DNA of 64,000 nt from Escherichia coli. GTDB lineage: Bacteria > Pseudomonadota > Gammaproteobacteria > Enterobacterales > Enterobacteriaceae. Both the position numbers and the translations under genes were made by a program. A model generated the notes under the pieces. That model did not search any database. It had not been told where the DNA came from and worked only from the letters and a program-made list of their open reading frames with translations. The first letter of the stretch is position 1. Every line of letters begins with the position of its first letter. The stretch lies in NCBI RefSeq assembly GCF_003018115.1, contig NZ_CP027457.1; one strand, given 5' to 3'. This document shows positions 35,739 to 44,800 of this stretch, piece after piece.

Positions 35739-35758
35739 TCTGTATAGTTATTTATTCG

Positions 35759-35790
35759 CAGGAGTACCAGTGCGGTACTCCTGTTGCTTT
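35759..35790 (+). terminator. Stem-loop terminator between yhiD and the chu locus
   Basis: Perfect 10-bp stem caggagtacc/ggtactcctg with 5-nt loop followed by ttgctttt. Confidence 0.7.
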
Positions 35791-36560
35791 TAATGATCGA
35801 GGACGATCAGTGGTGAATGGTTGGCAGGATCTTTAAGTACGGTAATATCCGCGCCGTAGAGCATTGTCAGCGCCTGCTGTGTCAATACGTCCTGTGGTTT
35901 ACCATTTGCGATAACCTTTCCTTTTTGCATTAATACAATACGGTCTGCATAACGCGCGGCAAGATTTAGATCGTGCAATACGCAGCAAACATTGAACTGC
36001 CGCTCGTGAACTAACTGGCGTAATAAACGGAACAAGTGCTGCTGATGGTGAATATCCAGCGCCGAAGTTGGTTCATCAAGAAATAACCATTTCGGTGAGG
36101 GAGTAGGTTCCCAGAGTTGCACCAGCAGGCGCGCTAATTGTACGCGCTGTTGTTCACCACCGGATAATTGCCGATAGTCGCGGTTTGCTAACGCCTGACA
36201 GTCACATAACGCCATTATTTGTGCTGTTTCATTATCCTGATTACCAGTACGATGCGGATGCCGACCCATCTGGATAACTTCTTGTACGCTGAATGGAAAC
36301 GCCATGTGGCTATTTTGACGCATCACGGCCCGGTGTTTCGCCAGTTCAGTAATCGACCATTCATTTAATGACTTATTAAACAGCCGACATTCGCCGCTAT
36401 CAGGTTGAAGATAGCCGGTTAACTGGCGAAGCAGCGTAGATTTTCCCGCACCATTAGGGCCGAGAATGGCAACAATTTCCCCACCGGGAAAAGTCAGCGA
36501 GACATTATCAGTCAGACGCCGCCCCTGAAGGCTATAAACTAGATTCTGGGCGCTGATCAT
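35790..36560 (-). CDS. chuV: Haem ABC transporter ATP-binding protein ChuV (HmuV)
   Basis: ORF 35790..36713; true start at MISAQNL, overlapping the chuU stop in an ATGA arrangement; Walker [13 protein letters not shown] signature LSGGEQQR. Confidence 0.88.
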
Positions 36561-37549
36561 GTGATCCTCCGATTTCGCAGAATCAACCACATAAAATAAG
36601 GGCCACCAAGCAGGCTGGTTAATAATCCCACGGGCATTTCTGCTGGCTGTACCAGCGTGCGGGCAAGCGTGTCTGCCATCAGCAATAAACAGGCTCCGGC
36701 GAGGGCGGAACAAGGGATGAGCCAGCGGTGATTTGCTCCGGTAGTCATGCGAATCAGATGCGGGATCACCAGGCCAATAAAGCCGATAATGCCGCTTACC
36801 GATACGGCAGCACCAACGAGCAGTGAGCTCACTAACAGTAATTGCTGGCGTTTACGCTTAACGTTCACGCCGAGGTAATGGGCTTCTTCATCACCGAGCT
36901 GCAGTAAATTCAGCGTTCCGGCGAGACAAGTTGTTGCGATAATGGCCGGAAGGATGAATGAACTGGCAACCAATAACGTCGGCCATTGCGCCTGTCCAAG
37001 ATTGCCCATCATCCACAATGTGAGTTGTCGTAGCTGCTGCTCATCGCCGATATAGCTCAGGATGCCGATCGCTGCGCCGCACAGGGCATTGATGGCGATA
37101 CCGGCGAGTAATAATTGCATCATGCTGCCATCGCGATGGCGCTGCGTGATGAGAAAAATGATGGTGCAGACCACTAAACTTCCGGCAATGGCAAACATCA
37201 TTTGCTCATAGAGCACCAGCACCACTGGGAAGGAGAAGGGCAGCACAATAGCAACGCCAACCATTAATGCAGAACCGCTACTGACGCCAAGTAATCCTGG
37301 GTCAGCCATTGGGTTGCGAAAAAGCCCCTGCATAATTACCCCTGCGGTTGCCAACGCTGCACCTACCAGCACCGCCAGCAAAACCCGTGGTAGACGAATA
37401 TTGAGCCAGATATCGCGGTATTCCTCATCAAAAAGGGCATCAAAACTGATCTTTAACGCTCCCTGACTGGCACCGAACAGCACCAGGGCAAGCAATAATA
37501 GTGATAGCCCCATAAAGACCCTGGCGGAAGAGAGTGAATCCTTGAGCAC
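36557..37549 (-). CDS. chuU: Haem ABC transporter permease ChuU (FecCD family)
   Basis: 330-aa polytopic membrane ORF; translationally coupled to chuV. Confidence 0.88.
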
Positions 37550-43663: not shown

Positions 43664-43711
43664 TCATCTGCCCCGATATTTCGGGGCATTTATCTGGAAG
43701 GAAGAGAGACA

Positions 43712-44740
43712 ATGAACCACTACACACGCTGGCTTGAGTTAAAAGAACAAAATCCCGGAAAGTACGCGCGTGACATCGCAGGGTTAATGAATATTAGAGA
43801 AGCAGAACTGGCATTTGCACGCGTCACGCACGATGCATGGCGGATGCGCGGCGATATCCGTGAAATTCTGGCGGCGCTCGAAAGTGTTGGCGAGACCAAA
43901 TGTATTTGCCGTAATGAATATGCAGTCCATGAGCAAGTTGGTGCGTTCACAAACCAGCATTTGAACGGACATGCCGGATTGATCCTCAATCCACGCGCGC
44001 TGGATTTACGTCTGTTTCTCAATCAATGGGCCAGTGTTTTCCACATCAAAGAAAACACGGCTCGTGGCGAACGCCAGAGTATTCAGTTCTTTGATCATCA
44101 GGGCGATGCATTACTAAAAGTTTATGCCACCGACAATACCGATATGGCGGCATGGAGTGAGCTTCTGGTACGGTTTATCACCGATGAGAATACGCCGCTT
44201 GAGTTAAAAGCCGTTGATGCGCCAGTTGTTCAAACGCGAGCCGATGCCACTGTGGTCGAGCAAGAGTGGCGGGCGATGACCGACGTTCATCAGTTTTTTA
44301 CGTTGCTAAAGCGCCACAATCTGACGCGCCAACAGGCGTTCAATCTGGTGGCAGACGATTTGGCCTGCAAAGTATCCAACAGTGCGTTGGCGCAAATTCT
44401 TGAATCTGCACAGCAGGATGGTAATGAAATCATGGTGTTTGTTGGCAACCGTGGCTGCGTACAGATTTTCACTGGTGTGGTAGAAAAAGTGGTGCCAATG
44501 AAAGGTTGGCTGAATATTTTCAACCCGACGTTTACTCTTCATCTATTAGAAGAGAGCATTGCTGAAGCCTGGGTTACCCGTAAACCGACCAGCGATGGCT
44601 ACGTAACCAGTCTGGAATTGTTTGCCCATGATGGTACGCAGATAGCGCAACTTTATGGTCAACGTACAGAAGGCGAACAGGAGCAAGCGCAATGGCGTAA
44701 GCAAATTGCTTCGCTGATACCGGAAGGCGTTGCTGCATAA
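43712..44740 (+). CDS. chuS: Haem oxygenase / haem utilization protein ChuS
   Basis: 342-aa ORF immediately downstream of chuA. Confidence 0.9.
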   Translation: MNHYTRWLELKEQNPGKYARDIAGLMNIREAELAFARVTHDAWRMRGDIREILAALESVGETKCICRNEYAVHEQVGAFTNQHLNGHAGLILNPRALDLRLFLNQWASVFHIKENTARGERQSIQFFDHQGDALLKVYATDNTDMAAWSELLVRFITDENTPLELKAVDAPVVQTRADATVVEQEWRAMTDVHQFFTLLKRHNLTRQQAFNLVADDLACKVSNSALAQILESAQQDGNEIMVFVGNRGCVQIFTGVVEKVVPMKGWLNIFNPTFTLHLLEESIAEAWVTRKPTSDGYVTSLELFAHDGTQIAQLYGQRTEGEQEQAQWRKQIASLIPEGVAA

Positions 44741-44800
44741 CGTATAATTAACGGGAGGTCTGGCTATTTATTGCTGGGCCTCTTTATATTGATCAATCGT

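Follow-up and report, generated by a model that had tools for sequence, protein, structure and literature searches.

The chu locus and its limits

The window, as the whole 64-kb stretch of Escherichia coli DNA analyzed here is called, carries between yhiD and dctR the classical eight-gene chu locus (in Shigella: shu) for haem uptake and breakdown, at its usual chromosomal site. The genes chuVUYXWT are arranged on one strand and chuA-chuS lie divergently on the other. On the minus strand, chuV (35790..36560) encodes the ATPase of a haem ABC transporter (NF010068, 396 bits at a cutoff of 261; L001 annotation) and chuU (36557..37549) its permease (ShuU/ChuU annotation and matches to BtuC/FecCD-type proteins). 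They are joined by chuY (37598..38221), coding for an NAD(P)H-binding anaerobilin reductase (PDB 5FFQ and 5GUY, E 1e-133; Pfam NAD_binding_10; annotation), chuX (38221..38715) for a cytosolic haem carrier (TIGR04108, 210 bits; PDB 2OVI, E 1e-109), chuW (38728..40065) for a radical-SAM methyltransferase of anaerobic haem degradation (TIGR04107, 570.8 bits at a cutoff of 400) and chuT (40085..40999, annotated start) for a periplasmic haem-binding protein (PDB 2R7A, ShuT, E 1e-162). The plus strand holds chuA (41681..43663), the gene of the TonB-dependent outer-membrane haem/haemoglobin receptor (TIGR01785, 588.7 bits; PDB 3FHH and 9DIR, E 1e-110 or better), and chuS (43712..44740), which codes for a cytoplasmic protein of haem degradation and storage (PDB 4CDP and 1U9T, E 1e-230; annotation).

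NCBIfam equivalog or subfamily models were matched above their cutoffs by ChuV, ChuX, ChuW and ChuA. Gene starts are given as annotated in the nearest relative, the 99.9%-identical genome L001, and not as mechanical ORF starts; the 307-aa mechanical ORF of chuV, for example, extends past the real start. All eight chu genes as well as yhiD and dctR are named in the RefSeq annotation of L001, and the eight products show 100% identity to the translated locus of that genome. The gene content, order and strands given in the original prediction were thus borne out by the ORFs, the NCBIfam and PDB matches and the L001 annotation.

With these products, haem would be taken across the outer membrane by ChuA in a TonB-powered step, bound in the periplasm by ChuT and pumped into the cytoplasm by ChuUV, where ChuS would handle or degrade it. 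Under anaerobic conditions, the radical-SAM enzyme ChuW would open the haem ring to yield anaerobilin, which ChuY would reduce, with ChuX acting as a carrier (this chemistry is reviewed in PMC12670364). ChuW and ChuX belong to the HutW and HutX families (TIGR04107 and TIGR04108); compared by family membership and description, the hutWXZ/hutBCD system of Vibrio cholerae has HutZ in place of ChuY and a different gene organisation (PMC12670364).

Both flanking genes are common to K-12: on the left yhiD, a member of the MgtC/SapB family (35091..35738, plus strand; NCBIfam NF007431, 401.7 bits; annotated in L001), and on the right dctR (yhiF), coding for a LuxR/GerE-type regulator (44801..45331, minus strand; annotated in L001). 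In K-12 MG1655, the spacer between them measures 41 bp and the chu genes are absent, as had been predicted. A base-by-base comparison of the junctions revealed that K-12 homology stops at 35743 and restarts at 44800, so that K-12 has a 35-bp filler, GTGGCAGCGTAGCCAGACTCACCGTAAGCCTGAAA, where the window has 9,056 bp of chu-specific DNA (35744..44799). The left homology break (query position 344) was seen again in chu-minus genomes. The GC content of the chu-specific segment is 50.3%, compared with 39.8% and 37.1% in the flanks. Across window positions 25402-45905, the acid-fitness island is colinear with that of the B2 strain LF82, and the yhiD-dctR site also holds chu in LF82 and in the loci L003-L005. 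The annotation and the K-12 comparison therefore uphold the prediction that the locus sits in the acid-fitness island, flanked by the convergent genes yhiD and dctR; of the predicted limits, the size of about 9 kb stands, while the exact bounds shift to those of the chu-specific segment.

The chu locus itself is already known: chu of E. coli O157:H7 and uropathogenic strains and shu of Shigella dysenteriae were reportedly described by Torres & Payne in 1997 and by Wyckoff et al. in 1998 (a paper that PMC5799925 cites), and the locus, known since 1997-98, is in daily use for E. coli phylotyping. The window agrees with these systems in its eight genes, their order, strands and site, the Fur boxes and the FourU thermometer, and its proteins are near-identical to the solved ChuS, ChuX, ChuY, ShuT and ShuA structures. 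Its chu locus is 97-100% identical to annotated E. coli loci. Differences are at the strain level only, namely a chuT start codon that reads ATA instead of ATG and a loop of 8 nt in the chuS terminator. The exact ChuS protein is recorded in 1,491 blocks of assemblies, and the Clermont phylotyping amplicon lies within chuA (41916-42203), where both primers match exactly and delimit a product of 288 bp.

Control region, terminators and the chuT start codon

In the 64-kb window, matches of at least 14 of 19 positions to the Fur-box sequence GATAATGATAATCATTATC occur only at 41023-41041 (16/19), 41029-41047 (15/19) and 41373-41391 (17/19), all in the control region between the divergent genes, and composition-preserving shuffles yielded 0.03 sites per window at a score of at least 16/19. 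As the only strong matches of the window, these sites support the Fur-box-like operators that had been proposed for this region. On the chuT side, the 42-nt leader (41000..41041, minus strand) corresponds to the published shuT RNA thermometer and carries a predicted Fur box at +1 to +19. This geometry agrees with the mapping of shuT, where transcription was found to start 42 nt before the initiation codon and a Fur site that departs from the consensus at 3 nt spans +1 to +19 (Wei et al., 2017; PMC5458455).

On the chuA side, a promoter-like site, TTGATC-17-AATAAT (41353..41391, plus strand), is overlapped by the Fur box at 41373-41391, a site also retained in the hemP-hemR loci of Citrobacter, Enterobacter and Kluyvera. 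Starting from this site, the chuA leader is predicted to comprise about 293 nt (41388..41680, plus strand); likewise, 293 nt 5' of the chuA ATG have been taken as the 5' UTR (Kouse et al., 2013; PMC3660397). The 3' 70-88 nt of the leader are conserved across Enterobacteriaceae, and its end matches the shuA/chuA FourU thermometer (41652..41683, plus strand; Rfam RF02597, 60.1 bits at a gathering score of 58, E 1.5e-7), an element with an experimental basis (PMC3660397). In this arrangement, two divergent promoters would each be closed by Fur under plentiful iron, and the leader RNA thermometers would permit translation at 37 C.

The chuA leader stands in the position of hemP, with the conserved Fur box before it and the conserved 3' leader after it. 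That it represents a decayed hemP was considered and rejected as unsupported: a 53-aa ORF at 41396-41557 showed neither a Pfam hemP match nor a BLASTP match to Citrobacter HemP, and an nhmmer profile built from 38 hemP genes found no match in Escherichia leaders.

Three hairpins accompany the coding sequences. An 11-bp hairpin between the stop codons of yhiD and chuV (35758..35784) is conserved in L004 and L005 and absent from K-12. It folds at -20.5 kcal/mol (z -4.2) on the plus strand, where it is followed by TGCTTTTAAT, and at -17.9 kcal/mol (z -4.5) on the minus strand, 5 nt 3' of the chuV stop. With the sequence that follows it on the plus strand, it looks like a yhiD terminator; it cannot serve as the boundary of the locus, the role it had been assigned in the original prediction, since it sits within chu-specific DNA that is missing from K-12. 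In the gap between chuA and chuS, a hairpin with a T-rich tail (43669..43688, plus strand; -16.4 kcal/mol, z -2.05) is a putative terminator or attenuator. The putative chuS terminator (44754..44791, plus strand; -18 kcal/mol, z -3.4) consists of an 11-bp stem with an 8-nt loop followed by TTTATATT and ends 9 nt short of the dctR stop codon; its stem is kept in L003-L005, there with a 4-nt loop.

The start codon of chuT (40999-40997) is ATA in the window, owing to a T instead of a C at 40997, and ATG in all relatives examined (L001, LF82, L004 and L005). All eight predicted genes are present, but chuT departs from the canonical start codons expected of the locus, so that not all of them are obviously functional. 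Among 2,236 chu+ genomes, the ATA allele gave no exact match to a 95-nt probe, a search that would miss ATA genomes bearing one more SNP within the probe, and a look-up of exact products found the Met27 form and not the Ile27 form. A sequencing error could also account for the T at 40997. A start at a GTG near 40915 was ruled out, as the codon there is GTA. Initiation might still take place at the ATA or at a downstream TTG; AUA initiation has been put at ~0.1-3% of AUG (bioRxiv 10.1101/063800). Because the ATG of chuT became ATA, the codon change probably leaves ChuT at a few per cent of its normal level in the window strain, which lowers confidence in full function of the locus and not in its identity. 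The strain would then use another inner-membrane route for haem. Entry of haem is also possible via the Dpp permease. The reduction of ChuT predicted from the ATA codon would offer a natural test of how far haem uptake depends on this protein.

Two proposed sources of the chu genes

The two arms of the locus resemble different haem systems. The products of chuTWXYUV are 80-88% identical to those of an operon on the Providencia rettgeri plasmid pNR1418-2 (AP025671; see also NZ_LC507075), which has the same T, W, X, Y, U, V order, identical lengths of the W, X, Y, U and V genes and 76.5% DNA identity to chu in one 4.9-kb piece. The Providencia operon is borne on a resistance plasmid, adjoins ISCR1 and a class 1 integron and is without chuA-chuS. 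In contrast to Escherichia, where no receptor gene is found at that place, it is headed by the gene of a 714-aa TonB-dependent receptor, which is only 30% identical to ChuA. The operon illustrates an architecture and does not point to the donor itself.

The 5' end of chuT shares homology with that of the first Providencia gene, from the promoter through the Fur box and the leader to the signal-peptide codons. The 5' region of the Providencia receptor gene aligns with the minus strand of the window at 41061-40944 (73.6% over 121 nt, E 7.6e-15), an alignment that runs on into the promoter, and in a tblastn comparison residues 1-28 of the receptor match the ChuT N-terminus with 53.6% identity (E 2.9e-6). 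After a check of the reading frames, the stretch at 40916..40999 (minus strand) appears as the relic of a receptor signal peptide that now forms the in-frame start of chuT. At the head of the operon in the window, where the Providencia type has its receptor gene, only the promoter, the leader and these ~26-28 codons are left.

ChuA and ChuS, on the other hand, are 80-88% identical to HemR and HemS of Citrobacter and Enterobacter, while T, U and V reach only ~31, 60 and 50%. The enterobacterial, Yersinia-type hemP-hemR-hemS-hemT-hemU-hemV clusters (Citrobacter, Enterobacter, Kluyvera, Lelliottia and others; L006-L075) have the Fur box and the last 70-88 leader nucleotides, thermometer included, in common with chuA. 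They differ from chu in that all genes lie on one strand with hemT/U/V after hemS, no chuW/X/Y occurs within 10 kb of the hemS homologue, and an intact hemP (Pfam PF10636, E 1e-16) is present where Escherichia has a non-coding leader. The chu locus does not share this colinear order on one strand: only its R and S orthologues are of the hem type, and its T/U/V genes, which come from another lineage than hemT/U/V, are on the opposite strand.

These comparisons suggest, tentatively, that the textbook chu locus is a two-part chimera, that the 5' end of chuT is the relic of a deleted receptor gene and that the window strain is a chuT hypomorph, a combined reading to which we give somewhat less than even odds. 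One part would have been a receptor-T-W-X-Y-U-V operon as found on the Providencia plasmid; the other would stem from an enterobacterial hemP-R-S-T-U-V cluster, of which it comprises the end with the Fur box, chuA and chuS. Once chuA-chuS had assumed the receptor function, the original receptor gene could have been lost by an in-frame deletion that joined its promoter, Fur box, leader, ATG and signal peptide to chuT. The published "shuT thermometer," the chuT promoter and the Fur operator would thus have originated as the 5' end of a TonB-dependent receptor gene. A relic of this kind would explain both the double, signal-peptide-like N-terminus of ChuT and the unusual Fur site in its leader, and the reading may be of interest to specialists in iron uptake.

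Presence and absence of chu in Escherichia

The chu locus was found in 2,234 of 5,426 complete E. coli genomes (41%), and the nearly invariant empty-site allele in 3,179. Carriers include isolates from guinea fowl, river water and wastewater. According to phylotyping work, chuA is present in phylogroups B2/D/E/F and absent from A/B1/C (PMC4322292). The locus is therefore a marker of lineage and not of pathogenicity, and its earlier description as typical of pathogenic E. coli does not hold; from its presence, the window strain does not belong to phylogroup A, B1 or C. The idea that plasmids carry the whole locus was rejected, as the only full-length "plasmid" matches were two records of 4.9 Mb, evidently chromosomal.

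The original prediction regarded chu as inserted into the island. A K-12-like ancestral island into which a 9-kb pathogenicity islet was horizontally acquired in pathogenic lineages would account for the missing block in K-12 and for its GC content against AT-rich flanks of 37-40%; related operons do occur on plasmids, and an entry into the island must have happened at some deeper time. However, no integration scar is visible. A repeat search over 35600-44950 and an end-to-end comparison, covering both ends of the locus, gave only chance-level matches, the longest word common to 35739-35800 and 44741-44800 being TATTTATT, an 8-mer that L003-L005 do not keep at their right end. The locus contains no integrase gene or IS, its eight genes filling the coding space with the 681-bp control region as the largest gap, and between gadE and arsC the L001 annotation is free of tRNA genes. 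Nor is the empty site equal to the occupied site minus an island: the 35 bp of K-12 have no counterpart in chu+ genomes, and local alignment of this filler to the chu segments of the window, L003, L004 and L005 was no better than that of shuffled filler. Rather than a clean insertion, the comparison shows a replacement, with 9,056 bp in one allele and 35 bp in the other. The frequency of 41%, non-clinical isolates included, also speaks against an islet of pathogenic lineages, and chu is not confined to a recent sub-lineage, as three further Escherichia lineages carry it at this junction. Insertion in pathogenic lineages is thus regarded as very improbable. For the logic of annotation, it matters that the absence of genes from K-12 is no proof of their insertion elsewhere.

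The outgroup loci favor a loss. L004 and L005 with all eight genes, and L003 with chuA-chuS only, carry chu between yhiD and dctR with identical junctions, and the divergence of chu parallels that of the flanks: DNA identity to the window amounts to 89-95% for chu and 86-95% for the flanks in L004 and L005, and to 94-98% for both in L003. Within E. coli, the K-12 flanks (98.8-100% identical to the window; yhiD 99.2%, dctR 99.4%) nest within chu+ diversity, those of the chu+ strain LF82 being less similar (97.2-98.5%). Because the outgroup junctions and divergence match and the K-12 flanks are closer to the window than those of LF82, the K-12 state is most simply explained as a secondary loss, and chu is, on these comparisons, most likely ancestral to Escherichia; the direction of change is a parsimony reading based on the three outgroup loci plus a handful of pairwise identities rather than on a genome-wide tree. 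The chimera would already have been in place between yhiD and dctR before E. coli split from the other Escherichia lineages and would have been inherited vertically thereafter. A later loss would have produced the K-12-type allele, in which 35 bp replace the 9,056 bp and which 59% of the complete genomes carry. The account as a whole, that is, a standard-site chu locus with divergent regulation, chimeric origin, vertical inheritance, K-12-type loss and a chuT start mutation, is given a probability of about 0.85.

Homologous recombination through the yhiD/hde and dctR/slp flanks could likewise have swapped the chu+ and the 35-bp empty alleles between lineages. Both alleles have sharp, identical homology boundaries, the empty allele is almost invariant over its genomes, and between LF82 and the window chuY and chuX (94-95%) are more diverged than the flanks, with only 89% identity in the chuT-chuA spacer. 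Some recombination within the locus is therefore possible, and gene conversion has been raised as an option (PMC5799925). As the main cause of the present distribution, such exchange seems unlikely nonetheless, since chuA presence fits phylogroup well enough to be used for typing (PMC4322292) and the divergence of chu between species equals that of its flanks. In other species of the genus, an independent report of the haem locus within the acid-fitness island of E. albertii speaks for the ancestral presence of chu, and the reported absence of the haem genes from the island of E. fergusonii speaks against it (PMC5799925).

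The chu locus and its junctions

All eight genes of the original prediction were recovered exactly as listed. Encoded on the minus strand are chuV, a haem ABC ATPase gene (35790-36560), chuU (36557-37549), chuY (37598-38221), chuX (38221-38715), chuW (38728-40065) and chuT (40085-40999), and on the plus strand chuA (41681-43663) and chuS (43712-44740); each is an open reading frame (ORF) with its start taken from the annotation of the nearest relative. NCBIfam matches above cutoff comprise a haem ABC ATPase, HutX, the ChuW/HutW radical-SAM enzyme and a TonB-dependent haem receptor. 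Solved structures were matched at E <= 1e-110 for ChuS (4CDP/1U9T), ChuY (5FFQ/5GUY), ChuA (3FHH/9DIR), ChuT (2R7A) and ChuX (2OVI). The nearest relative, RefSeq genome F8111-1SC3 (L001), is 99.9% identical across 14.5 kb; its annotation names all eight genes in the interval bounded by yhiD and dctR, beyond which lie hdeD/A/B and gadE at one end and slp at the other. The acid-fitness island from gadX to slp (25402-45905) is wholly colinear with that of the chu-positive B2 strain LF82. The presence of the locus, which is already known, is confirmed, and its initial interpretation is partly supported.

In K-12 (MG1655), yhiD and dctR are convergent and spaced by 41 bp. In a base-by-base alignment, agreement between the window and K-12 runs through TCTGT (35739-35743) and resumes at T 44800. 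Between these junctions, the window contains 9,056 bp and K-12 a stretch of 35 bp without counterpart in the window (GTGGCAGCGTAGCCAGACTCACCGTAAGCCTGAAA), which aligned to the chu DNA with a score no better than that of the shuffled filler. Therefore, the difference represents a replacement, with K-12 carrying 35 bp of its own, and not a clean insertion. A search for direct repeats or integration scars found neither direct nor inverted terminal repeats at the ends of the chu segment; the longest word common to both is TATTTATT, whose right-end copy falls in a hairpin loop where other lineages read TGTC and the Escherichia lineage L005 reads GGTC. No integrase, transposase or IS was found in the chu region among the ORFs and the L001 annotation, and that annotation lists no tRNA gene from gadE to arsC. 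The hairpin at 35758-35784, regarded at first as a yhiD terminator bounding the locus, does exist (-20.5 kcal/mol, z -4.2), but it is situated within chu-specific DNA, 5 nt past the chuV stop, and is kept in other chu-positive lineages and missing from K-12. Stable hairpins also follow chuA (43669-43688) and chuS (44754-44783, then TTTATATT).

Distribution and age of the locus

The chu locus is present in 2,234 of 5,426 complete E. coli genomes and the K-12-type empty junction, almost invariant in sequence, in 3,179; together, these alleles account for all but about 12 genomes. Two PLSDB entries filed as plasmids (NZ_CP134663.1 and NZ_CP141089.1) contain the whole locus, and their size of 4.9 Mb indicates chromosomes. 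A scan for ChuS relatives using one genome per species identified three Escherichia genomes well beyond the E. coli range seen here, with flanking-gene DNA identities to the window of 96-98% (MOD1-EC7003, L003) and 86-95% (L004 and L005). In all three, chu genes are located between yhiD and dctR with junction sequences identical to those of the window, and their divergence from the window is about that of the flanking genes. The K-12 flanks are closer to the window (98.8-100%) than those of chu-positive LF82 (97.2-98.5%), and therefore a chu-minus genome nests among chu-positive ones. In E. albertii, the haem locus was independently reported inside the island, with the remark that a clean deletion would be needed (Bush et al., PMC5799925). 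The simplest reading of these comparisons would be that chu is an ancient resident, passed on vertically and lost once at a later time; an exchange of alleles through the flanks is a possible alternative. MOD1-EC7003 retains chuA-chuS only; in place of chuTWXYUV it has an ERIC-like element that begins no more than 2 bp from the K-12 breakpoint. A second ERIC-like copy in opposite orientation is located inside its chuA leader (L003 5883-6531).

The chuA gene serves as a phylogroup marker, since B2/D/E/F have it and A/B1/C lack it (PMC4322292), and the Clermont chuA primers match the window exactly, with a 288-bp product at 41916-42203. Carriers of the locus include guinea fowl, river water and wastewater isolates, so that its description as typical of pathogenic E. 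coli was overstated.

Control region and proposed function

The anticipated Fur-box-like operators were found in the divergent region. Only three 19-mers in the whole 64-kb window match the Fur consensus at at least 14/19 positions, all of them in the chuT-chuA control region: predicted boxes at 41023-41041 (16/19), 41029-41047 (15/19) and 41373-41391 (17/19), with a chance expectation of about 0.03 for sites at 16/19 or better. The last overlaps the -10 element of a promoter-like site (41353-41381), which implies a chuA leader of about 293 nt; a chuA 5' UTR of 293 nt was used by Kouse et al. (PMC3660397). The shuA/chuA FourU thermometer was identified at 41652-41683 (Rfam, score above gathering). 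For shuT, mapping placed the transcription start 42 nt before the start codon and a Fur site, three bases off consensus, at +1 to +19 (Wei et al., PMC5458455); a putative chuT transcription start at 41041 and the start codon at 40999 would fit this mapping. The chuA leader (41388-41680) occupies the position of hemP in other Enterobacteriaceae and holds a 53-codon ORF (41396-41557), in neither of which hemP similarity was detected by Pfam, BLASTP or an nhmmer profile. The control region (40916-41680) has diverged far more than the genes, with identities of 89% to LF82 and 80-82% to L004/L005. About 270 bp of it (41081-41352) carry no assigned feature, and one number is missing from the RefSeq locus tags at this point in both F8111-1SC3 (RS12540) and LF82 (RS18360).

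Roles of the encoded proteins were taken from literature on the same proteins (reviewed in PMC12670364) on the basis of near-identity in sequence. ChuA would import haem across the outer membrane, and ChuT and ChuUV would carry it over the periplasm and inner membrane. ChuS may then degrade or store haem, while ChuW would convert it to anaerobilin without oxygen, with ChuY as the predicted anaerobilin reductase and ChuX as a carrier. Expression would be controlled by Fur and temperature.

Proposed mosaic composition and the chuT start codon

The ChuS relative of about 75 other Enterobacterales genomes belongs to a receptor-S-T-U-V cluster encoded on one strand; in about 12 of these genomes the receptor homologue went undetected, and in 38 an intact hemP ORF precedes the receptor. 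HemR/HemS of Citrobacter, Enterobacter and related genera are 80-88% identical to ChuA/ChuS, whereas T/U/V of Citrobacter/Enterobacter/Kluyvera are only about 31/60/50% identical to ChuT/ChuU/ChuV. The reverse holds for a receptor-T-W-X-Y-U-V operon found on two Providencia rettgeri plasmids: its products from T to V share 80-88% identity with those of the window, and its genes for W, X, Y, U and V are of equal length, but its receptor shares only 30% with ChuA. The chu locus therefore seems to be a chimera that joins parts of two haem clusters, a TWXYUV module (35790-40999) and a chuA-chuS module (41373-44740).

The 5' region of the Providencia receptor gene, from promoter and Fur box through the leader to the first codons, aligns to the window minus strand at 41061-40944 (73.6%, 121 nt, E 7.6e-15); the homologous 5' stretches, window 40916-41061 (minus strand) and 15020-15260 of the plasmid locus L087, extend from the chuT promoter through the first 28 codons. 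In addition, the signal peptide of the receptor, MLPRNNQRPFILSALTLCMSGAAFAATS, is similar to the extension at the ChuT N-terminus, (M)PRIITRPFLFSPLTLCISALASAAKS (E 2.9e-6). The Providencia T protein starts with MKKL, corresponding to an internal Met that is still present in L004/L005 and that E. coli lost via a three-codon deletion. In Escherichia, chuT therefore appears to be fused in frame to the remaining 5' end of a deleted TonB-dependent receptor gene.

Between 33000 and 47300, the window and L001 differ at only three positions, of which one, 40997, converts the chuT start (codon 40997-40999, minus strand) to ATA from the ATG of L001, LF82, L004 and L005. The 95 nt around this ATA had no exact match among 2,236 chu-positive complete E. 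coli genomes, the best having one mismatch. A very large assembly index has no entry for the 330-aa conceptual product with Ile at the start position and lists the Met version in 43 blocks. AUA initiation in E. coli reaches about 0.1-3% of AUG (bioRxiv 10.1101/063800), and this lineage reads ACG in place of an internal chuT ATG of LF82; therefore, ChuT is probably strongly under-produced in this strain, unless 40997 is a sequencing error. Both the chuT fusion with the chimera and the ATA start are modest side results.

Beyond the locus, 11 of 14 differences from the nearest relative cluster within about 150 bp (47345-47497), which suggests a recombination boundary. The cluster lies at the 5' end of a 407-aa ORF (46300-47523). 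In the relative this ORF carries a frameshift annotation, and its K-12 counterpart, yhiS, is a split pseudogene.
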